A DNA stretch of 17,677 nucleotides, from the UHGV virus genome UHGV-0132791; one strand, given 5' to 3'. Below the pieces are notes generated by a model. That model saw only the letters and a list, made by a program, of their open reading frames with translations, was not told where the DNA came from and searched no databases. A program made the position numbers and the translations under genes. Shown one piece after another: positions 538-13,970 of the stretch (positions are counted from its first letter, which is position 1; each line of letters opens with the position of its first letter). Source of the stretch: a virus.

Positions 538-813
538 ATGTCTGTATATACAACCGCAGAATTACTGGCATCGACCCAGCATCACTTTAAGTTCGATCCG
601 CTGTTTCTGCGCCTGTTTTTCCGTGAAACCTATCCTTTCACCACGGAGAAAGTCTATCTCTCACAAATTCCGGGACTGGTAAACATGGCGCTGTACGTTT
701 CGCCGATTGTTTCCGGTGAGGTTATCCGATCCCGTGGCGGCTCCACCTCTGAATTTACGCCGGGTTATGTCAAACCCAAGCACTTAGCATGGCTTTCTGA
801 GGCTTTCGTGTAG
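538..813 (+). pseudogene. E: Major capsid protein gpE, 5' fragment (codons 1-82), interrupted by insertion; ends in 9 element-encoded codons and a stop
   Basis: Translation MSVYTTAELLA…FKFDPLFLRLFFRE.YPFTTEKVYLSQIPGLVNMALYVSPIVSGEVIRSRGGSTSEFTPGYVKPKH matches the lambda gpE N-terminus; similarity stops after codon CAC (781-783), followed by LAWLSEAFV* (TAG 811-813). Confidence 0.9.
773..782 (+). repeat. Left copy of 10-bp att core / target duplication (AACCCAAGCA)
   Basis: Exact 10-bp identity with 11397-11406, located exactly at the E breakpoint. Confidence 0.75.
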
Positions 814-2435: not shown

Positions 2436-2471
2436 ATTACTGATTTGAGAATTTGTACTCAAATCAGTAAT
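2436..2471. terminator. 14-bp perfect inverted repeat between convergent genes (possible bidirectional terminator)
   Basis: ATTACTGATTTGAG (2436-2449) / loop 8 nt / CTCAAATCAGTAAT (2458-2471), between the alpA stop (2410) and the stop of the minus-strand gene (2480). AT-rich stem with no clean T-run, so weak. Confidence 0.35.
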
Positions 2472-2479
2472 AACATTCT

Positions 2480-3016
2480 TTATAAGAGATTAAATCCAAA
2501 TAAAGAGTAATCATATACCGGGGTGCATTGCATCCCACTGAATATGCTGATGTTTTTTTCTGTTTCTATCCTTTTTTCAATAAGTTGTTGTATATTTTTA
2601 CAGTACAATTTGTGTGTGATGTTATTATCGTAAGCCTGATATAGCAACGTCAATGTTGATGCTATGAAACATGCAGAAAGAAAATGAACTAGTACATGTG
2701 AGCGTTTTTTGGTTGTCCATGATGCATTCGCTTGTGAAATATAAATCATTCTGAGAATGATAATGATGATAGACAGTAACAGACCACTCAATAAAATAAG
2801 TATTGGGTTTGCGTATTTAATTAATGGTTGAGAGCAAAAAACTATTATAGCTCCTGTGACTGCGTATGAGAAAAAGGAGTAATTAAACTTCTTACTCCTT
2901 CTCTCAAGTATTTTAATTTCATCTTGTGTGGGGGGTTTAGATGCCTCCAATATAAGTTTATTAAATGTTTCTGTTATCTTGTTTTTTGTGTTTTTGGCTA
3001 TTTTTTTTAGATTCAT
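2480..3016 (-). CDS. Small membrane protein (two predicted hydrophobic helices), function unknown; AT-rich cargo gene
   Basis: 178-aa ORF with hydrophobic stretches (…AVTGAIIVFCSQPLIKYANPILILLSGLLLSIIIIILRMIYI… and …HVLVHFLSACFIASTLTLLYQAY…); visibly lower GC than its neighbours; GGAG-like SD upstream of the ATG (rc of 3014-3016). Confidence 0.6.
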   Translation of the reverse strand: MNLKKIAKNTKNKITETFNKLILEASKPPTQDEIKILERRSKKFNYSFFSYAVTGAIIVFCSQPLIKYANPILILLSGLLLSIIIIILRMIYISQANASWTTKKRSHVLVHFLSACFIASTLTLLYQAYDNNITHKLYCKNIQQLIEKRIETEKNISIFSGMQCTPVYDYSLFGFNLL

Positions 3017-4851: not shown

Positions 4852-5151
4852 ATGGAAATGAAAAATTCTGGCTTTATTGCCAGCGGCCCCGCTCGGCCTG
4901 AATTTATGAACGGCGATATTTACCGCGATAAATACGGCGGCACGGTAACGATTAAAGGCGTGGCAGAACGGCGCATTACTTACCGCCGTGAGGGGTATAG
5001 CTATGACTGCGTGATGCCTGTTTATCAGTTCCGGCGTGATTTTTCCCTGGTATATGCCGCACCCCGCAGTAAGCCCATCAGCAGGGAAAAAGCGCGGGGA
5101 AACATCCAGAAAATGAAAAGCATGATTAACGCATTCAGGGGCAAAAAATGA
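4852..5151 (+). CDS. Hypothetical protein
   Basis: 99-aa ORF with GAGG SD; its stop overlaps the pri-rep start (ATGA at 5148-5151). Confidence 0.5.
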   Translation: MEMKNSGFIASGPARPEFMNGDIYRDKYGGTVTIKGVAERRITYRREGYSYDCVMPVYQFRRDFSLVYAAPRSKPISREKARGNIQKMKSMINAFRGKK

Positions 5152-6899
5152 AACTGGCACCGAACTTAAAAAAACAGCCACGCGACAGACTGACAGAGGT
5201 AATCATCTTTGCAGGTAGTGATGCGTGGAGCCATGCGAAAGAGTGGCAGGAATGGGCGGGTAAACATATTGCCGCCGACGATGTGCCGCCTGTCGTGCTG
5301 GCTGATGAGCAACTGAAAAATATCACCGATTACCGGATCATTGATGAAGATCGTCAGTGTGTGCGTGTTTACCGCGCAGGACATATCACAGAGCACAGCA
5401 TGACGCAGATTGTTACGTTATTGGCTGTGGCTGGAGTGAAGACCGTACACGAATACGCGGGGATTACTGACACCAGCCCCGTGGATTTATCCGACCAGTT
5501 GCCGCGACTCAAAGAGGAATGCGAGCGTGGGGAAAGTCTGGTGCTTAATCTTCCGACGAAGCAAAAGGCGCAACTTTCACAGATGGCAGACAGTGAACGT
5601 GCACAACTACTTGCCGATCGCTTTGATGGTGTGTGTGTTCATGCAGAAAGTGAAATCGTCCACGTATGGCGCGGCGGGGTATGGTGTCCGGTCAGCACAA
5701 TGGAGCTGAGCCGCGAAATGGTGGCGATCTATTCAGAGCACAGGGCCACATTCAGCAAGCGTGCAATTAATAACGCCGTGGAGGCGTTAAAAGTTATTGC
5801 CGACCCCATGGGGGAGCCGTCCGGTGATTTGCTACCGTTCGCCAATGGTGTGCTTGACCTGAAAACGGGGGAATTTTCCCCGCACTCGCCGGAGAACTGG
5901 ATCACCACGCACAACGGCATTGAGTACACGCCACCAGCACCAGGGGAGAACATCCGCGACAACGCGCCAAACTTTCATAAATGGCTTGATCACGCAGCCG
6001 GAAAAGACCCGCGCAAGATGATGCGTATATGTGCCGCGCTGTACATGATTATGGCGAACCGGTACGACTGGCAGATGTTTATTGAGGCCACCGGAGAGGG
6101 CGGTAGCGGTAAAAGTACATTCACACACATAGCCAGCCTTCTGGCAGGGAAACAGAACACGGTAAGCGCTGAAATGACATCGCTTGATGATGCTGGTGGA
6201 CGTGCGCAGGTTGTCGGGAGTCGTCTTATCGTCCTGGCTGACCAGCCGAAATATACAGGCGAAGGCACGGGCATCAAGAAAATCACGGGCGGCGACCCCG
6301 TGGAAATAAACCCGAAATATGAAAAGCGTTTTACGGCGGTAATCAGGGCGGTGGTGCTGGCTACCAACAATAACCCGATGATATTCACCGAACGGGCCGG
6401 AGGTGTGTCACGTCGTCGCGTAATTTTCCGCTTCGACAATATCGTTAGCGAGGCAGAAAAGGACAAGGATTTACCGGAGAAGGTCGCGGCTGAAATCCCC
6501 GTGATTATCCGCAGATTGCTGGCAAACTTTGCTGATCCAGAAAAGGCGCGACATTTGTTGATTGAACAGCGCGACGGTGAAGAAGCACTGGCGATAAAGC
6601 AACAGACGGATCCGGTTATTGAGTTTTGCCAGTTTCTGAATTTTCTGGAGGAAGCGCGCGGCCTGATGATGGGTGGCGGTGGCGATTCCGTGAAGTACAC
6701 GACCAGAAACAGCCTTTACCGCGTCTATCTGGCGTTTATGGCATACGCAGGCAGAAGCAAGCCGCTAAACGTGGCTGATTTCAGCAAGGCCATGAAGCCA
6801 GCGGCGAAAGTTTACGGATGTGAATATATAACGCGCAGGGTTAAAGGACTTACGCAAACCAATGTGACAACAACAGAGGATTGCGACGCGTTTTTATAA
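5148..6899 (+). CDS. Replication initiator, primase-helicase type (P4 alpha C-terminal / PICI Pri-Rep-like SF3 ATPase)
   Basis: 583 aa; Walker A GEGGSGKST (6093-6119), Walker B-like LIVLAD; overall pattern of the phage/plasmid primase P4-family C-terminal domain; followed directly by an iteron array. Confidence 0.85.
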   Translation: MKLAPNLKKQPRDRLTEVIIFAGSDAWSHAKEWQEWAGKHIAADDVPPVVLADEQLKNITDYRIIDEDRQCVRVYRAGHITEHSMTQIVTLLAVAGVKTVHEYAGITDTSPVDLSDQLPRLKEECERGESLVLNLPTKQKAQLSQMADSERAQLLADRFDGVCVHAESEIVHVWRGGVWCPVSTMELSREMVAIYSEHRATFSKRAINNAVEALKVIADPMGEPSGDLLPFANGVLDLKTGEFSPHSPENWITTHNGIEYTPPAPGENIRDNAPNFHKWLDHAAGKDPRKMMRICAALYMIMANRYDWQMFIEATGEGGSGKSTFTHIASLLAGKQNTVSAEMTSLDDAGGRAQVVGSRLIVLADQPKYTGEGTGIKKITGGDPVEINPKYEKRFTAVIRAVVLATNNNPMIFTERAGGVSRRRVIFRFDNIVSEAEKDKDLPEKVAAEIPVIIRRLLANFADPEKARHLLIEQRDGEEALAIKQQTDPVIEFCQFLNFLEEARGLMMGGGGDSVKYTTRNSLYRVYLAFMAYAGRSKPLNVADFSKAMKPAAKVYGCEYITRRVKGLTQTNVTTTEDCDAFL

Positions 6900-6904
6900 T
6901 TTTA

Positions 6905-7145
6905 GACAAAAGCCCTCTACCTCCTCTACCTAAAGAAAATAAATATATATTATTCAATATGATAAGAAGGTAGAGGGTCAGGTAGAAGGCAAATAAAAGC
7001 CCTCTACCTCCTCCACCATGATTAAGGTCATTTGTGAGGGGCGGGTAGAGGATGGGTAGAGGGCCCCGAAAGCCCTCTACCCATCTGAAAGCCGCGCCAT
7101 TACTGACCTGAAAGATGATTAGGTAGAGAGGTAGAGGAGGTGCAC
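6905..7145. repeat. Iteron array / putative element replication origin
   Basis: About 11 copies of CCTCTACC / GGTAGAGG in both orientations (e.g. 6913-6930, 6969-6989, 6999-7017, 7043-7063, 7073-7082, 7122-7140), including the inverted pair GGGTAGAGGGC…GCCCTCTACCC (7054-7082), flanking an AT-rich stretch (6931-6968); immediately 3' of the replication gene. Confidence 0.7.
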
Positions 7146-7878: not shown

Positions 7879-8114
7879 ATCAGTTGAGTCCGTCACACCA
7901 CGCAAAAAAAAGGCCGGAATATTCCGACCCTTTCATCACCAAAGAGAATAATTTATGTCTTTGAACTTGTAACGCTGTACAGAATGACACGTAACGCCGG
8001 ATAAATAAACGAAGATTGAAACTTTGCACAATATTGCATAGCAATGCATAAAGATGCCGATCAAGGCAGATGATAAAATTAATACGACACTTTTACTAAG
8101 TATTAAGAGGTTAT

Positions 8115-9155
8115 ATGAGTGATTTATATTCGCCAGCGGAGTTAATACAGACTGTTAATGCTGAAGATATTCAATGGCAGATTAACTCTTTATTTATAAA
8201 CCTGTTTTTTAAGCGAGTCGTTACATTTGAGACGCGGGATATTGCGCTTGATATTATTGACGATCCAGACATCCCGATGGCTGCATTTTGTTCCCCTATG
8301 GTTGGTAGTAAAGTATCACGCGATGAAGGCTACGAATCAAAAGTAATTCGCCCTGGCTACATGAAGCCAAAAAGTAGTATAGACCCAAATAAAATAGCCG
8401 TTCGTCAACCAGGCGTATCACCGGAACAATTCAATGCATATTCATCACGCAATTTCAAAATAAAGCGAGCGATGGTAAGACAAGCGCAGGCCATTCGCGC
8501 ACGTATTGAATGGCTTGCTGTTCAGGCAATCACAACGGGGAAAAATATCATTGAGGGCGATGGCATTGAACGTTATGAACTGGACTGGAATATAAAACCA
8601 CAAAATATTATCACGCAGTCCGGCGGCACGGAGTGGAGCGGTAGAGATTTATCAACATTTGATCCAAATGATGACATCGAAGAGTACGCAGAAATCAGCG
8701 AAGGGACTACAAATATCATCGTAATGGGACGCAACGTATGGAAAAAATACCGCGCCTTTAAAGCAGTAAAAGATTGCCTTGATACTCGACGGGGATCTAA
8801 TTCCGTTCTTGAAACGGCCCTGAAAAATCTTGGGGATTCCGTCAGTTTTAAGGGTTACGTAGGCGATGTGGCTATTGTTGTGTATAGCGGACGTTATACC
8901 GACGAGGACGGAACAGAAAAATATTTCCTTGATCCTGATTTGATGGTTCTTGGCAATACATCACTTCAGGGCATCGTTGCATACGGTGGCATTCAGGATC
9001 CGGAGCTAATCCGAATGGGGCTGACTAAAGCCGAACTCGCACCGAAAAACTACATTGTGCCTGGAGATCCGGCTATTGAGTACGTACAAACGCACTCTGC
9101 ACCACAGCCAATACCGGCCCGCATCAATCGTTTTGTTACCGTTCGCATTGGTTAA
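8115..9155 (+). CDS. Element-encoded major capsid protein, lambda gpE paralogue
   Basis: 346 aa; clearly homologous but divergent from gpE (shared blocks PGYMKPK, ITQSGGTEWS.RD.ST.DP.DDIEEYA, KAVKD.LDTRRGSNS.LETA.K.LG..VS.KGY.GDVAIVVYSG.Y, MVLGNT); strong SD AAGAGG. Confidence 0.9.
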   Translation: MSDLYSPAELIQTVNAEDIQWQINSLFINLFFKRVVTFETRDIALDIIDDPDIPMAAFCSPMVGSKVSRDEGYESKVIRPGYMKPKSSIDPNKIAVRQPGVSPEQFNAYSSRNFKIKRAMVRQAQAIRARIEWLAVQAITTGKNIIEGDGIERYELDWNIKPQNIITQSGGTEWSGRDLSTFDPNDDIEEYAEISEGTTNIIVMGRNVWKKYRAFKAVKDCLDTRRGSNSVLETALKNLGDSVSFKGYVGDVAIVVYSGRYTDEDGTEKYFLDPDLMVLGNTSLQGIVAYGGIQDPELIRMGLTKAELAPKNYIVPGDPAIEYVQTHSAPQPIPARINRFVTVRIG

Positions 9156-9164
9156 GGGGGAGCA

Positions 9165-9506
9165 ATGGCTACTCATTACACTGAACTCATGGCTGGCACT
9201 GAAGCACTGGTTACTACGTTGGGGATATTTTCAGCTAATAAAGGGGTAATTCCTGCATTTACGCCACTGATGCAAGAAGATGCAACTGGTGCACTGGTGG
9301 TATGGGATGGAACGAGCGCAGGCAAAGCTGTTTATGTTTCCGCTGTACAAATCGATACAGCGACAAAAACGCAGGCTCAGGTTTATAAAACCGGCGTCTT
9401 AAATGTTGATGCTCTGAACTGGCCTGAGTCTGTAACACAACTATCAGCAAAAGTTGCTGCGTTTGTTGGCTCAGGTATTTCTGTTCAGCCGCTGGCACGT
9501 GTGTGA
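9165..9506 (+). CDS. Element-encoded head decoration protein, lambda gpD paralogue
   Basis: 113 aa; gpD-like blocks (TPLM…LVVWDGT…YKTG…WPE…) and length; immediately downstream of the capsid paralogue, with SD AAGGGGGAG. Confidence 0.8.
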   Translation: MATHYTELMAGTEALVTTLGIFSANKGVIPAFTPLMQEDATGALVVWDGTSAGKAVYVSAVQIDTATKTQAQVYKTGVLNVDALNWPESVTQLSAKVAAFVGSGISVQPLARV

Positions 9507-9515
9507 GGTACGAGA

Positions 9516-9860
9516 ATGATTGAAAGAGATAGTCAGCTACGAGAGCTATTAGATATCGATGACAAAATGCGCTTAAGCGAGCGTCTTGTCGATATGAATC
9601 AGGTGATGGAACTTACAACCCTGAGTCGCCGTACACTGCTAAACCTTGAGGCTCGTGGAGAGTTCCCTGAGCGTGTGCAGGTTACGGAAGGGCGTAAGGC
9701 TTGGTATTTAAGCGAGGTTGTTGAGTGGATTAACAATATCCCGCGAGCATCAAACTATTGCCTCGTACCCACACCGGAAAAACCTGATGCGGCGTTATGC
9801 CTCAAGATTGAACGCGCCAGGCGTAATGCCCTGAAAGGGCGCAATAAGTTGATTGGTTGA
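9516..9860 (+). CDS. Second AlpA-family HTH regulator
   Basis: 114 aa; …MNQVMELTTLSRRTLLNLEARGEFPERVQVTEGRKAWYLSEVVEWI… is AlpA/HTH_17-like; located between the decoration gene and the cos site. Confidence 0.7.
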   Translation: MIERDSQLRELLDIDDKMRLSERLVDMNQVMELTTLSRRTLLNLEARGEFPERVQVTEGRKAWYLSEVVEWINNIPRASNYCLVPTPEKPDAALCLKIERARRNALKGRNKLIG

Positions 9861-9868
9861 TGAAATTA

Positions 9869-9895
9869 GGGCCCGCTCTGGCTGGCGGGTCCTTT
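9869..9895 (+). terminator. GC-rich hairpin plus short T run after second AlpA-like gene
   Basis: GGGCCCGC (9869-9876) / 8-nt loop / GCGGGTCC (9885-9892) with one G·U pair, followed by TTT. Confidence 0.35.
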
Positions 9896-9913
9896 CCGGC
9901 AATCCGGCAGACT

Positions 9914-9950
9914 ACGGGGCGGAAGGCGCGCGGGTTTTCGCTATTTATGA
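9914..9950. other. cos-like site (cosN region) of the element
   Basis: ACGGGGCGGAAGGCGCGCGGGTTTTCGCTATTTATGA: flanks match the lambda cos left-end sequence as I recall it (…ACGGGGCGGCGACCTCGCGGGTTTTCGCTATTTATGA…), but the central hexamer differs (AAGGCG vs CGACCT); lies about 150 bp upstream of the Nu1-like TerS, as in lambda. Confidence 0.6.
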
Positions 9951-10076
9951 GCATTTTTAGGGGACTGGTGGTGGTTTTGTTGTTCGCTATATCTGTATGA
10001 ATAATAAGAGAAAAACACAATCAACACACCAACCTGAAACAGTAATTAAGTTGTGGTATCAATGAAATTGCACCTG

Positions 10077-10604
10077 ATGAACAAAAAAAACATGGCAAAA
10101 AGTTGCCGTGTAAGCGCCACTGCGTTCGATAAGTGGGGAGTGATTCCCGTCGAGCGTAAGGGCCGCGAGGCGTTTTATGATGTCGCCAGTGTAATAGATA
10201 ATCGGGTTAACAATGCAATCAGCCAGATTACAAACGAAACGGGCGAGATTGATGATGATGAACTCCTACGAGTCAGGATCAGATTGCTGACAGCACAGGC
10301 AGAGGCGCAGGAGCTTAAAAACGAGCGCGAACGCGGCGACGTTATTGATACAGCGTTTTGTATATACGTGCTTTCAAAACTGGCGAGTCAGATTTCTTCA
10401 ATCATGGACAGCCTGCCGCTTGCCATGACAAGGAAGTTTCCCGACATGAAGCCGTCTATGCTGGATGGACTGAAAAAAGAAGTTATCAGAGCCTGTAACG
10501 CATGCGCAAAACTTGACGAAAACATACCGCTGATGCTGTCCGATTATCTGATGGAAACTGCCGGAAACGTACCGGATAAGTTGCAGCTGAATAAAGATAA
10601 GTAA
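10077..10604 (+). CDS. Terminase small subunit, lambda Nu1-like
   Basis: Homology to lambda Nu1 (MNKKNMAKS…YDVASVID…LLTAQAEAQELKNERERGDVIDTAFCIYVLSKLASQISSIMDSLPLAMTRKFPDMK vs Nu1 …LTRAQADAQELKNARDSAEVVETAFCTFVLSRIAGEIASILDGLPLSVQRRFPELE). ORF track begins at a GTG at 10053; ATG 10077 is chosen by alignment with the Nu1 N-terminus. Confidence 0.85.
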   Translation: MNKKNMAKSCRVSATAFDKWGVIPVERKGREAFYDVASVIDNRVNNAISQITNETGEIDDDELLRVRIRLLTAQAEAQELKNERERGDVIDTAFCIYVLSKLASQISSIMDSLPLAMTRKFPDMKPSMLDGLKKEVIRACNACAKLDENIPLMLSDYLMETAGNVPDKLQLNKDK

Positions 10605-10615
10605 CGTAGTACGCT

Positions 10616-10897
10616 ATGACTGAATCCGAAATACTGCGATTAATCCGCCGTGCTTGTGGAATCAGCAAGCAGCATGACGAACAGGCCACGCAGCCGGACA
10701 GCGTGATCGCCGAAAATTACGCGCGTGTTGTTGCTGATGTGATGCGCCGTGATGGTATTGAGCTTAACGGCGTGGATATGCGCGACATACGGATCAGATT
10801 CCTTGAGTTGCTGGCATACCGTCGCCGTTCTCAACAACGAAGGGAGAGCGCGAAAAACACTTATCAGTGGAAGAAGCCGGAACGGTTGCGGCGGTAG
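10616..10897 (+). CDS. Hypothetical basic protein downstream of TerS
   Basis: 93-aa ORF, ATG at 10616 twelve nt after the TerS stop; no recognisable similarity to terminase large subunit. Confidence 0.45.
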   Translation: MTESEILRLIRRACGISKQHDEQATQPDSVIAENYARVVADVMRRDGIELNGVDMRDIRIRFLELLAYRRRSQQRRESAKNTYQWKKPERLRR

Positions 10898-11299: not shown

Positions 11300-11320
11300 T
11301 GTATTGCAGCATGTATTGCA
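11300..11320 (+). repeat. TGTATTGCAGCATGTATTGCA direct repeats (candidate arm-type sites), right end
   Basis: Matches 911-930 (TGTATTGCAGCTTGTATTGC) with one mismatch, in the same orientation, about 77 bp inside the right core. Confidence 0.5.
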
Positions 11321-11396: not shown

Positions 11397-11406
11397 AACC
11401 CAAGCA
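11397..11406 (+). repeat. Right copy of 10-bp att core / target duplication (AACCCAAGCA)
   Basis: Identical to 773-782; preceded by an in-frame TAA (11396-11398) that ends the element-side frame. Confidence 0.75.
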
Positions 11407-12187
11407 TGAGGTGAATCCGCAGATGACCCTGCGTCGCCTGCCGGATGAAGATCCGCAGAACCTGGCTGACCCGGCTTACCGTCGTCGCCGTATTATTCGG
11501 CAGAATATGCTGGATGAAAATCTGGCGATTGCCCAGGTCGAAGAGATGCAGGCAGTTTCTGCCGTGCTTAAGGGCAAATATACCATGACCGGTGAAGCCT
11601 TCGATCCGGTTGAGGTGGATATGGGCCGCAGTGAGGCGAATAACATCACGCAGTCCGGCGGCACGGAGTGGAGCAAGCGTGACAAGTCCACGTATGACCC
11701 GACCGACGATATCGAAGCCTACGCGCTGAACGCCAGCGGTGTGGTGAATATCATCGTGTTCGATCCGAAAGGCTGGGCGCTGTTCCGTTCCTTCAAAGCC
11801 GTCAAGGAGAAGCTGGATACCCGTCGCGGCTCTCATTCCGAGCTGGAGACAGCGGTAAAAGACCTGGGCAAAGCGGTGTCCTATAAGGGAATGTATGGCG
11901 ATGTGGCCATCGTCGTGTATTCCGGACAGTACGTGGAAAACGGCGTCAAAAAGAACTTCCTGCCGGACAACACGATGGTGCTGGGGAACACTCAGGCTCG
12001 CGGTCTGCGCACCTATGGCTGCATTCAGGATGCGGACGCACAGCGCGAAGGCATTAACGCCTCTGCCCGTTACCCGAAAAACTGGGTGACCACCGGCGAT
12101 CCGGCGCGTGAGTTCACCATGATTCAGTCAGCACCGCTGATGCTGCTGGCTGATCCTGATGAGTTCGTGTCCGTACAACTGGCGTAA
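11399..12187 (+). pseudogene. E: Major capsid protein gpE, 3' fragment (codons ~80-341), separated from its 5' part by the insertion
   Basis: Translation PKHEVNPQMTLRRLPDEDPQNLADPAYRRRRII…DEFVSVQLA* matches the lambda gpE C-terminal 260 residues almost exactly; there is no start codon or RBS of its own at the homology boundary (the ORF track starts at an internal GTG at 11411). Confidence 0.9.
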
Positions 12188-12227: not shown

Positions 12228-12623
12228 ATGACGAAAGATGAACTGATTGCCCGTCTCCGCTCGCTGGGTGAACAACTGAACCGTGATGTCAGCCTGACGG
12301 GGACGAAAGAAGAACTGGCGCTCCGTGTGGCAGAGCTGGAAGAGGAGCTTGATGACACGGATGACGCTGCCGGTCAGGACACATCTGTCAGCCCGGAAAA
12401 TGCGCTGACCGGACATGAAAATGAGGTGGTATCAGCGCAGCCGGATACCGTGACTGATACGGCTGATCTGGTCACGGTTGTGGCACTGGTGACGCTGCAT
12501 ACTGATGCACTTCACGCCACGCGGGATGAACCTGTGGCATTTGTGCTGCCGGGAACGGCGTTCCGTGTCTCTGCCGGTGTGGCAGCTGAAATGACAGAGC
12601 GCGGCCTGGCCAGAATGCAATAA
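12228..12623 (+). CDS. FI: DNA packaging protein FI
   Basis: MTKDELIARLRSLGEQLNRDVSLTGTKEELALRVAEL… …AFRVSAGVAAEMTERGLARMQ matches lambda gpFI (some substitutions mid-protein); ATG at 12228 with GGAGGAG SD. The ORF track starts upstream at 12159. Confidence 0.9.
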   Translation: MTKDELIARLRSLGEQLNRDVSLTGTKEELALRVAELEEELDDTDDAAGQDTSVSPENALTGHENEVVSAQPDTVTDTADLVTVVALVTLHTDALHATRDEPVAFVLPGTAFRVSAGVAAEMTERGLARMQ

Positions 12624-12634
12624 CGGGAGGCGCT

Positions 12635-12988
12635 GTGGCTGATTTCGATAACCTGTTCGATGCTGCCATTGCCCGCGCCGATGAAACGATACGCGGGTAC
12701 ATGGGAACGTCAGCCACCATGACATCCGGTGAGCAGTCCGGCGCAGTAATACGTGGTGTTTTTGATGACCCTGAAAATATCAGCTATGCCGGACAGGGCG
12801 TGCGCGTTGAAGGCTCCAGCCCGTCCCTGTTTGTCCGGACTGATGATGTGCGGCAGCTGCGGCGCGGCGACACGCTGACCATCGGTGAGGAAAACTTCTG
12901 GATAGACCGGATTTCGCCGGATGATGGCGGAAGCTGTCATCTCTGGCTTGGGCGGGGCGTACCGCCTGCCGTTAACCGTCGCCGCTGA
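12635..12988 (+). CDS. FII: Head-tail joining protein FII
   Basis: (GTG)ADFDNLFDAAIARADETIRGYMGTSAT…LWLGRGVPPAVNRRR matches lambda gpFII. Confidence 0.9.
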   Translation: MADFDNLFDAAIARADETIRGYMGTSATMTSGEQSGAVIRGVFDDPENISYAGQGVRVEGSSPSLFVRTDDVRQLRRGDTLTIGEENFWIDRISPDDGGSCHLWLGRGVPPAVNRRR

Positions 12989-12999
12989 AAGGGGGATGT

Positions 13000-13578
13000 A
13001 TGGCCATAAAAGGTCTTGAGCAGGCCGTTGAAAACCTCAGCCGTATCAGCAGAACGGCGGTGCCCGGTGCCGCCGCAATGGCCATTAACCGCGTTGCTTC
13101 ATCCGCGATATCGCAGTCGGCGTCACAGGTTGCTCGTGAGACAAAGGTACGCCGGAAACTGGTAAAGGAAAGGGCCAGGCTGAAAAGGGCCACGGTCAAA
13201 AATCCGCAGGCCAGAATCAAGGTTAACCGGGGGGATTTGCCCGTAATCAGGCTGGGTAACGCGCGGGTTGTCCTGTCCCGACGCAGGCGTCGTAAAAAGG
13301 GGCAGCGTTCATCCCTGAAAGGTGGCGACAGCGTGCTTGTGGTGGGAAACCGTCGTATTCCCGGCGCGTTTATTCAGCAACTGAAAAATGGCCGCTGGCA
13401 TGTCATGCAGCGTGTGGCCGGGAAAAACCGTTACCCCATTGATGTGGTGAAAATCCCGATGGCGGTGCCGCTGACCACGGCGTTTAAACAGAATATTGAA
13501 CGGATACGGCGTGAACGTCTTCCGAAAGAGCTGGGCTATGAGCTGCAGCATCAACTGAGAATGGTAATAAAGCGATGA
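13000..13578 (+). CDS. Z: Tail assembly/completion protein Z
   Basis: MAIKGLEQAVENLSRIS…[16 protein letters not shown] matches lambda gpZ; stop overlaps the U start. Confidence 0.9.
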   Translation: MAIKGLEQAVENLSRISRTAVPGAAAMAINRVASSAISQSASQVARETKVRRKLVKERARLKRATVKNPQARIKVNRGDLPVIRLGNARVVLSRRRRRKKGQRSSLKGGDSVLVVGNRRIPGAFIQQLKNGRWHVMQRVAGKNRYPIDVVKIPMAVPLTTAFKQNIERIRRERLPKELGYELQHQLRMVIKR

Positions 13579-13970
13579 AACATACTGAACTCCGTGCAGC
13601 CGTACTGGATGCACTGGAAAAACATGACACCGGGGCGACGCTTTTTGATGGTCGCCCCGCTGTTTTTGATGAGGAGGATTTTCCGGCAGTTGCCGTTTAT
13701 CTCACCGGCGCTGAATACACGGGCGAAGAGCTGGACAGCGATACCTGGCAGGCGGAGCTGCATATTGAAGTTTTCCTGCCTGCTCAGGTGCCGGATTCAG
13801 AGCTGGATTCGTGGATGGAGTCCCGGATTTATCCGGTGATGAGCGATGTCCCGGCACTGTCAGATTTGATCACCAGTATGGTGGCCAGTGGCTATGACTA
13901 CCGGCGCGACGATGATGCGGGCCTGTGGAGTTCAGCCGATCTGACTTATGTCATTACCTATGAAATGTGA
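13575..13970 (+). CDS. U: Tail terminator protein U
   Basis: [33 protein letters not shown]… matches lambda gpU. Confidence 0.9.

Follow-up and report, generated by a model that had tools for sequence, protein, structure and literature searches.

The stretch analysed here, viral genome UHGV-0132791 (17,677 nucleotides, called the window below), is the late region of a lambda-like prophage in which a satellite interrupts the major capsid gene E. We are nearly certain that this satellite is a helper-embedded phage-inducible chromosomal island (HE-PICI; PICI without the prefix) of the published E:Phage_cap_E:80 / Eco567.11capE type, with the prophage as its helper. Two adjacent genes of the satellite, at 8115 to 9506, can be assigned by homology, and with very high confidence, to the c1499/c1500 family, which supplies the capsid and decoration genes in the late zone of Gram-negative PICIs. 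Both genes are real and are under strong purifying selection, as strong as that on a working capsid gene, and the insertion into E is not the reason why they are carried. We tentatively suggest that their products could act as a matched shell and cement pair.

The Element Is a Helper-Embedded PICI inside Capsid Gene E

The window holds, in order, D, a 5' fragment of E, a 10.6-kb insertion, the remainder of E, and cognates of FI, FII, Z, U, V, G, T and H. Helper E is interrupted at about codon 81, and the main element genes all lie on the + strand. A 10-bp direct repeat, AACCCAAGCA, has only two copies in the window (773-782 and 11397-11406), and the insertion measures 10,624 bp from core to core. 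When the sequence was joined computationally across AACCCAAGCA, the result was an in-frame E gene of 1026 nt encoding 341 aa. The helper genes and boundary features are as follows.

150 to 482, + strand: helper head decoration gene D, intact, 110 aa (open reading frame, ORF; reciprocal match to the D-like protein of the element; "head decoration protein" in syntenic loci)
538 to 782, + strand: helper major capsid gene E, 5' part to the end of the att core (partial major capsid protein in the H35 and NRG857C annotations)
773 to 782, + strand: attL core AACCCAAGCA (10-mer with two copies in the window; 10-bp identity block reported for 11capE, PMC10111431)
783 to 11396, + strand: body of the helper-embedded PICI (att-core repeat and locus comparisons)
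909 to 931, + strand: doubled TGTATTGC motif, P' arm of attP (about 132 bp from the att centre; hallmark HE-PICI motif tgTGTATTGCantgTGTATTGCa, PMC10111431)
11298 to 11320, + strand: doubled TGTATTGC motif, P arm (ends about 81 bp before the att centre)
11397 to 11406, + strand: attR core AACCCAAGCA (10-mer repeat)
11407 to 12187, + strand: helper major capsid gene E, 3' part (ORF; protein match)

Eco567.11capE is the type helper-embedded PICI and has a 10-bp identity block at its att sites; site group E:Phage_cap_E:80 comprises 201 further instances at the same integration site (Tommasini, Mageeney and Williams 2023, NAR Genom Bioinform, PMC10111431). The hallmark of HE-PICIs is a doubled tgTGTATTGCantgTGTATTGCa with two co-oriented copies, one some 81 bp upstream of the attP centre and the other some 132 bp downstream of it (PMC10111431). 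In the window, the copies of TGTATTGC at 911 and 923 belong to a motif starting at 909, 131-132 bp after the core centre, and those at 11300 and 11312 to a motif ending at 11320, 81 bp before it. These arm spacings are those published for HE-PICIs. The integrase is identical to that of 11capE in strain NRG857C at 409 of 411 positions, and the junction running through the E fragment, attL, int and alpA is 99.4% identical to that strain. Gene order is also common to the window and the annotated NRG857C locus, including genes for a 346-aa capsid protein and a 113-aa decoration protein. The element thus combines the four marks of an HE-PICI site group (split late gene, identity block, doubled motif and integrase identity) with the core features of a Gram-negative PICI, namely int, alpA and a D5-type primase gene, iterons downstream of pri, a size of 10.6 kb, unidirectional genes and no full structural module. 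Gram-negative PICIs span about 10-20 kb in the definitions of Fillol-Salom et al. 2018 and SatelliteFinder.

Among 5,426 complete E. coli genomes, the junction was found in 174 and the whole window arrangement in 43, and the E-embedded arrangement also occurs in Cedecea and Kosakonia genomes. A metagenomic E. coli scaffold (L013; L numbers denote our comparison loci) is 99.8% identical to the window, differing solely by a length change in the iteron region, and has intact helper portal and protease genes upstream. In E. coli GN06489 (L003, 9227-10828) the helper portal gene is annotated as a pseudogene with an internal stop, which indicates that some helpers of embedded satellites are decaying. 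A contig of GCA_052627445.1 (L012) has, from 2766 on, an element whose integrase is of the type seen in the window and whose capsid protein is identical to that of the window; the att core marks its exact start. Chromosomal genes flank the element (ynfA side, rspA side) and E fragments are absent, so that either the integration was off-target or the surrounding helper was lost.

The Capsid-like Product Is Modelled as a Complete gpE

The two genes under study occupy adjacent positions.

8115 to 9155, + strand: satellite gpE-type major capsid protein, 346 aa, homologue of EcCICFT073 c1499 (Pfam, PHROG, BLAST, phmmer, AlphaFold2 model)
9165 to 9506, + strand: satellite gpD/SHP-type decoration protein, 113 aa, homologue of c1500 (Pfam, PHROG, BLAST, phmmer)

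The first ORF is intact, with an AAGAGG ribosome-binding site 7 nt upstream. In Pfam its product falls in Phage_cap_E (3.4e-42, covering residues 8-343 of 346), and among PHROGs in number 29, major head protein (8e-90). Identity to the 3' part of helper E is 46% over 260 aa (E = 1e-70) and that to the 5' fragment 33% over 83 aa (E = 1e-12); the full-length product is 42-46% identical to helper E. Searches with phmmer aligned it collinearly with lambda gpE (7VI9) over residues 5-345 at 3.7e-77. The top sequence match (E = 1.3e-122) was crystal structure 3BQW, deposited as "putative capsid protein of prophage (E. coli CFT073)", which is 97% identical to E. coli PICI capsid cluster P0042.

An AlphaFold2 model, built from an alignment that left out the reconstructed helper E, had a pLDDT of 79.6 and a pTM of 0.82. 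It gave TM scores of 0.89 against 3BQW, which thus ranked first by structure as well, and 0.87-0.89 against lambda gpE (7SJ5). No domain is missing relative to gpE. The only clade-wide indels, defined by a gap in all phage-clade sequences, are three extra residues at 17-19 and one at residue 50, in the N-terminal arm region, and neither sequence nor model gave any sign of altered curvature. As modelled, the product is a complete gpE with a full-length HK97-type fold.

Residue Y313 aligns with W308 of lambda gpE. All 11 phage-clade E proteins aligned have W at this position, and about half of the satellite clade, the window protein included, has Y. Structure 7SJ5 is the W308A mutant of lambda gpE, which is reportedly assembly-defective and monomeric; literature searches for gpE W308A found nothing beyond the 2018, 2019 and 2023 PICI papers cited here. 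Two single-contig ORFs, P0002 (463 aa) and P0064 (470 aa), fuse capsid and decoration domains (PF03864 and PF02924) and are either sequencing errors or natural read-through fusions.

The Decoration-like Product and Its Pairing with the Capsid-like Product

The ORF at 9165-9506 is likewise intact and matches Pfam HDPD (2.6e-16) and PHROG 49, head decoration (6.7e-27). Its product is 44% identical to helper D over 78 aa (E = 8e-19), and its best solved relatives by phmmer are SHP of phage 21 (1TD0, 8.7e-17) and lambda gpD (about 1e-12). Judged by these matches, it belongs to the trimeric cement-protein family gpD/SHP (HDPD).

E was accompanied by D in all 16 satellite loci examined. In lambda, a four-stranded sheet is built jointly by the N-terminus of gpD, the E-loop of one gpE and the N-arm of the gpE next to it (PMC5701804), and the regions that make up this contact are the most divergent between satellite and helper. 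The N-terminus of satellite D could not be aligned with helper D by BLAST; it is shorter than that of phage D and unrelated to it, and it is conserved among satellites. Satellite D also has a C-terminal extension of 4-5 residues relative to phage D. On the capsid side, the first 86 or so residues are 33% identical to helper E, compared with 46% for the remainder. Within the satellite clade, conservation of the N-terminal windows is not above that of the rest of the protein. If divergence at the contact reflects specificity, it fits a cognate pair and would explain why the element carries its own D despite an intact helper D. Since a decoration protein of this family binds only an assembled, expanded lattice, the retention of D would also argue that the E-like protein forms a lattice and is not merely a poison or a lone vertex factor. 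The sequences of the two products fit a matched pair.

Selection, Ancestry and Spread of the Pair

Computed against copies with synonymous sites far from or at saturation, the ratio of nonsynonymous to synonymous substitution rates (dN/dS) came to 0.05-0.09 in the capsid gene and 0.04-0.12 in the decoration gene. In Escherichia, Kluyvera, Superficieibacter, Cedecea and Kosakonia both frames are intact, at exactly 346 and 113 codons.

Among 50,697 phage genomes, the best protein match to the capsid-like product was lambda E itself, at 42%, and a DNA-level search of the same genomes with the E/D pair as query returned four weak 66% fragments only. Bacterial homologues form a continuous range from 100% down to 51% identity and cluster apart from phage-type E: mean identity is 60% and 67% within the two clades, and between them it averages 42% with a maximum of 47%. 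The satellite-clade members that we checked lie in PICIs; in Salmonella, a homologue with 43% identity is the capsid gene of an ordinary prophage. (A related-locus search with the capsid protein alone gave 4 loci, too few for a broad survey.) E precedes D in every satellite locus and follows it in phages, so the module is not a simple recent capture. By these comparisons, the pair appears to be an old lineage found in satellites only, with no close phage counterpart.

The pair is also common. Its DNA is present in 470 of the 5,426 complete E. coli genomes (about 9%), and 21 of 29 reference Gram-negative PICIs have a capsid gene (PMC10111431). Two E. coli PICIs among the closest matches, at abgR-smrA (L001) and tRNA-Pro (L002), have capsid, decoration and AlpA-like proteins that are 98%, 100% and 96% identical to those of the window, together with integrases and primases that are merely 26-45% identical, which indicates that the late module moves between PICI backbones. 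L003 and NRG857C have integrases that are more than 99% identical to that of the window and capsid proteins that are 84-85% identical. A 55%-identical E. coli capsid homologue is found in classical PICIs at tRNA-Pro and near smpB. On an Edwardsiella tarda contig (MBLV01000009.1, L010), an HE-PICI splits the helper portal gene and carries an E-then-D pair, the capsid protein being 58% identical, beside intact helper D and E. Across genera, satellite E is 77-80% identical where the C-terminal parts of helper E are 35-52% identical to the window helper; satellite E therefore does not track helper E. Given that the pair occurs in chromosomal and portal-embedded PICIs, and that excision restores E, it is a generic late-zone module of Gram-negative PICIs and not a compensation for the interrupted gene.

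The factual details of the original prediction, which had been made from the DNA alone, were all correct. It had described the two genes as divergent relatives of helper E and D, helper D as intact and the element as a roughly 10.6-kb interruption of E. It had also stated that the portal, protease/scaffold, large terminase (TerL) and tails must be borrowed, and none of these is encoded by an element ORF. The comparison with the gpE fold that it proposed gave the TM scores reported above, with all domains in place.

Expression and Packaging Signals around the Pair

Three features bear on how the pair might be expressed and the element packaged.

8024 to 8079, + strand: late-operon promoter-like region, TTGCAY repeats and a -10-like TAAAAT (alignment across five genera; putative function)
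9886 to 9958, + strand: lambda-like cos site (alignment to the joined ends of lambda NC_001416; cosN-like 12-mer GGGCGGAAGGCG at 9917-9928)
10053 to 10604, + strand: Nu1-type small terminase (TerS), 183 aa (Pfam Phage_Nu1 1.4e-24; PHROG 57; 38% identical to lambda Nu1, full length)

The TTGCAY/TAAAAT pattern occurs exactly once per locus of about 20 kb, 70-100 bp before the capsid start, in 11 loci (L001, L002, L004, L005, L007 and L012-L017). In the window and these 11 loci, the distance from the TTGCAY repeats and TAAAAT to the satellite capsid gene downstream is 35-90 bp. PICIs of the CFT073 type are without the motif and have a small ORF there instead. A terminator-like hairpin lies 3' of ssb. 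The TTGCAY motif and the doubled att-arm motif TGTATTGCA share ATTGCA, and one DNA-binding protein, perhaps of the AlpA family, might therefore act in excision as well as in activation of the late operon.

The cosQ-like and I2-like flanks of the element cos site are near-identical to those of lambda, and the cosB side downstream has diverged. The cosN equivalent is GGGCGGAAGGCG in the element and GGGCGGCGACCT in lambda; when the window was searched for the lambda form with up to 2 mismatches, the sole match was a chance one inside pri. The cos site lies directly upstream of the full-length terS, whose homology to Nu1 includes the C-terminal half. The 183-aa protein matched no PDB chain at E ≤ 0.01, deposited Rpp structures included. 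From its similarity to Nu1, it looks like a true TerS.

Published Experiments and a Proposed Mechanism

Homologues of the pair, c1499 (capsid) and c1500 (head decoration), have been studied by experiment in EcCICFT073 (Fillol-Salom et al. 2018, ISME J, PMC6092414). That island shows helper-dependent induction, packaging and high-frequency transfer, and with lambda as helper its packaged DNA was all phage-sized (PMC6092414). Its interference and packaging specificity map to Rpp, which acts on helper TerS; Rpp is a short mimic of TerS and forms a heterodimer with the DNA-binding domain of the helper protein (Fillol-Salom et al. 2019). For the embedded type, excision of 11capE from NRG857C upon induction was measured by quantitative PCR and read counts and reached 42-98% of composites by 2-3 h (PMC10111431). 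Our literature searches for later functional work on PICI capsid and decoration genes or on HE-PICIs gave nothing beyond the 2018, 2019 and 2023 papers.

The analysis shows the identity, integrity, selection, fold and context of the two genes; how their products would assemble, how specific their pairing would be, what the promoter would do and what advantage would follow is inferred. The reading that we favour is a matched shell-and-cement pair that works on the helper portal and scaffold and is redundant in the laboratory, and we place it somewhat below an even chance. Identity and mechanism taken together, it is the best overall explanation that we have and is evenly balanced between right and wrong. 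The E-like and D-like proteins would be co-adapted and would be expressed, along with the second AlpA-like protein, from their own activator-dependent promoter. The E-like protein would assemble on the portal, scaffold and protease of the helper into a lattice, in the form of whole shells or whole capsomers. D-like trimers would stabilise that lattice and would be needed because helper D is adapted to helper E. The element TerS, with helper TerL, would cut at the element cos site and fill E-like or helper shells, and helper connectors and tails would complete the particle. With a fully competent lambda-type helper supplying E and D, the pair would be redundant. It would be advantageous when the helper shell protein is limiting, delayed, incompatible or targeted, and in the embedded state helper E would not be made until the satellite excises.

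Several observations weigh against this reading. Deletion of c1499 or c1500 left transfer of EcCICFT073 by the resident helper unchanged (3.8e3 and 8.7e3 versus 8e3 transductants/ml, strain C600) and did not relieve lambda interference; an island in which c1499 was replaced by cat was transferred well with lambda and phi80, and the authors report that they found no phenotype for either gene (PMC6092414). These null knockouts mean that any structural role is dispensable with those helpers, an outcome that redundancy with a competent helper would explain. The type element in NRG857C gave no detectable particles (PMC10111431), and our literature search found no particle data for PICI members of the satellite capsid clade. 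The element encodes neither scaffold nor protease, and the fit of a 42%-identical shell protein to helper Nu3, C and portal is assumed. The late module is incomplete in some cases, NRG857C and L014 being without an intact terS. The promoter is a candidate by conservation alone; a generic sigma-70 promoter and terminator scan was no richer in matches than shuffled sequence and is thus silent on expression.

Alternative Explanations

A stronger form of the shell-and-cement reading seems unlikely to us. It holds that the satellite-only E/D clade would be a self-sufficient shell system, building satellite-specific capsids on the helper portal and scaffold, with its own D as the sole cement and its own cos and TerS for filling, possibly with a different T number or stability. 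If this were true, such Gram-negative PICIs would stand half-way between classical PICIs, which steal whole heads, and PICIs of the capsid-forming kind (cf-PICIs), which encode whole heads, and the EcCICFT073 null knockouts would reflect helper redundancy under laboratory conditions.

Size redirection, which we regard as improbable, would have the E-like protein, alone or mixed with helper gpE, build T=4 or T=3 shells for one or two 10.6-kb copies, cemented by its own D-like protein, much as with SaPIbov5 Ccm or PmCI172. The clade-wide indels in the N-arm region would fit such a role, as would the change from the phage-invariant W (lambda W308) to Y in the window subclade. The lambda small-head mutants described by Katsura in 1983 are reportedly point mutants of E. 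Scaling 48.5 kb by (T/7)^1.5 would give about 21 kb for T=4, close to two units (21.2 kb), and about 13.6 kb for T=3. Four units, on the other hand, come to 42.5 kb, or 87.6% of lambda, which is within the packaging limits of that phage, so that normal heads suffice. Nor does the sequence or the model suggest altered curvature. Ccm is a size-redirecting capsid homologue, PmCI172 has small capsids and a capsid homologue, and Katsura 1983 is among the references of the Dokland 2019 review that covers them (PMC6893505). The EcCICFT073 homologue with lambda nevertheless gave phage-sized DNA, and c1499 deletion brought no drop in transfer.

Interference or defence, in which the E-like protein with the D-like protein would co-assemble with and poison the capsids of incoming lambdoid phages, whether helper or competitors, and so protect hosts or bias assembly towards the satellite, also has a low probability in our estimation. 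Interference with helper assembly is common among PICIs, mixed capsomers could plausibly take in a 42%-identical subunit, and other defence cargo adjoins the module in satellite late zones (Abi_C; HEPN and DUF262). However, deletion of c1499 or c1500 gave no relief of lambda interference, which maps to Rpp acting on TerS. A dedicated decoration protein would be superfluous for a poison, and the strong conservation across the entire fold speaks more for assembly competence than for sabotage.

The original prediction had proposed both small capsids and co-assembly or poisoning. Judged only on the EcCICFT073 homologue, which is about 55% identical and acts in trans, neither is borne out: DNA packaged with lambda was phage-sized, and deletion of c1499 or c1500 had no effect (PMC6092414). 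The finding that it had named as telling against it, a paralogue not required for transduction, has been made for that homologue, and not for the window element. Its suggestion of a route distinct from known ones does not stand either. SaPIbov5 Ccm redirects capsid size and the same role has been proposed for PmCI172 (PMC6893505), so that a capsid-homologue route is not categorically distinct.

Compensation is very unlikely. The original prediction had stated that the element replaces the capsid subunit it disrupts, and on this explanation E and D would be carried to replace the interrupted helper gene or as a back-up before excision. Helper E is indeed not expressible while the element is embedded, a "backup intact copy" was raised as an idea by Tommasini et al., and the capsid gene is both the commonest HE-PICI target and the commonest Gram-negative PICI late gene (PMC10111431). 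But excision across the core restores the intact 341-aa E precisely, excision of the near-identical 11capE has been measured, and 98%- and 100%-identical pairs occur in the abgR-smrA and tRNA-Pro PICIs, which are chromosomal and disrupt no capsid gene. The exact E-like protein of the window is also found at a site with no E fragments (L012), the portal-embedded Edwardsiella relative carries its pair beside intact helper D and E, and the window element carries a D-like gene though helper D is undisrupted.

That the pair is a functionless relic of a captured phage late-gene block can be rejected on dN/dS and is extremely improbable: the EcCICFT073 knockouts without phenotype (PMC6092414) and the capture of prophage late genes by PICI late zones would agree with it, but the frames are intact and length-invariant in five genera, the clade is satellite-only without a close phage donor, the gene order is inverted relative to phages and the upstream motif is conserved.

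Other Genes of the Element

The remaining assigned features of the element are listed here.

946 to 2181, + strand: tyrosine integrase, 411 aa (Pfam Arm-DNA-bind_3 and Phage_integrase; matched to NRG857C 11capE as given above)
2183 to 2410, + strand: AlpA, integration zone (Pfam Phage_AlpA 2.8e-15)
4852 to 5151, + strand: DUF4222 protein (family match)
5148 to 6899, + strand: D5-type primase/helicase (Pfam D5_N, DUF5906, Pox_D5; PHROG 864)
6908 to 7081, + strand: iterons, three copies of AAAGCCCTCTACC, probable origin of replication (repeats downstream of pri, the position of the origin in Gram-negative PICIs, PMC6092414)
7440 to 7850, + strand: single-stranded DNA-binding protein, SSB (Pfam SSB 1.4e-14)
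9516 to 9860, + strand: second AlpA-family helix-turn-helix protein, late zone (Pfam Phage_AlpA 2.1e-09; PHROG 2790)
10616 to 10897, + strand: conserved 93-aa protein, PHROG 1561 (follows terS in relatives too)

Between AlpA and the DUF4222 gene lie further element genes (YlcI/YnfO-like, Icd-like and small ORFs with PHROG matches only), and there is a small conserved ORF between the iterons and the SSB gene. Besides its three exact AAAGCCCTCTACC copies, the iteron region has longer 23-nt repeats. At 2436-3016, a patch of 33% GC contains a minus-strand ORF of 178 aa, apparently hydrophobic and with no family match, which is kept in NRG857C and L003 as a hypothetical protein; a perfect hairpin with a 14-bp stem (2436-2471) separates it from alpA. 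Pfam and PHROG searches of every element ORF found no portal, protease/scaffold, large terminase, connector or tail gene and no homologue of Sid, Psu or Delta. No P4-type C4/isrK immunity RNA was matched in Rfam at the gathering threshold.

The cargo slot behind the late operon is variable. In the window it is empty, with about 500 bp of non-coding DNA. NRG857C (L020, 20222-22196) has HEPN and DUF262 cargo and a 64-aa ORF at the terS position, four loci (L012 and L015-L017, at about 13180-13940) have Abi_C cargo, and L014 has an AF_1680-family gene in place of terS (12230-13546).

Significance and Comparison with Known Systems

A satellite that lies in the helper capsid gene and has a capsid gene of its own has already been published, as has the capsid and decoration pair of Gram-negative PICIs, so the window does not hold a new kind of system. 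Added here are the apparently satellite-only clade, the inverted gene order, the dN/dS values, the divergence at the E-D contact, the conserved promoter-like motif, and the cos site with its Nu1-like terS. The pair is widespread, strongly selected and has no close counterpart in phages, yet it has not been tied to any phenotype. Whether its proteins are located in helper shells, in shells of their own or in no particles bears on whether classical PICIs only steal heads or also build part of them, and would bear also on the possible origin of cf-PICIs.

Like P4, the element is a satellite from enterobacteria, some 11 kb long, with cos packaging, a D5-type primase and its own capsid-decorating protein. 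P4, in contrast, has no capsid protein of its own, and its Sid (an external scaffold), Psu (a decoration protein) and Delta, which together with the alpha primase, Cnr and Eps mark P4-like satellites, had no match among the element ORFs in Pfam or PHROGs; P4-like membership was rejected on this gene content. With cf-PICIs the element shares its own major capsid protein and small terminase and the use of helper tails. Those islands also encode portal, protease, connectors, TerL and often HNH, none of which was found in the window element, and membership was rejected for want of portal, protease, connector and TerL in any element ORF.

Ccm of SaPIbov5 is, like the capsid-like protein here, a satellite HK97-fold paralogue of the helper capsid protein that relies on borrowed head machinery for the rest. 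Unlike the window protein, it has demonstrated size redirection and interference and no decoration partner, and its helper is a Gram-positive, prolate phage (PMC6893505); the window pair is not known to change capsid size, and knockout of the homologue in EcCICFT073 was null.

EcCICFT073 has the same protein families, likewise ordered E then D and placed behind ssb in the late zone. Its capsid protein has about 54-56% aa identity to that of the window, and it is chromosomal and acts in trans. Where it uses Rpp on helper TerS, the window element has a full-length Nu1-type TerS. Two loci of its capsid type, L008 and L009, which may not be EcCICFT073 itself, have the small ORF at the position of the TTGCAY repeats of the window.

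The published element 11capE in NRG857C has the same integration site in E, 10-bp block, arm motifs and spacings, and four-zone gene order. The window capsid protein is 85% identical to that of NRG857C, and the window keeps an intact Nu1-type terS and is without the HEPN/DUF262 cargo. These differences are allelic or mosaic, within one family.

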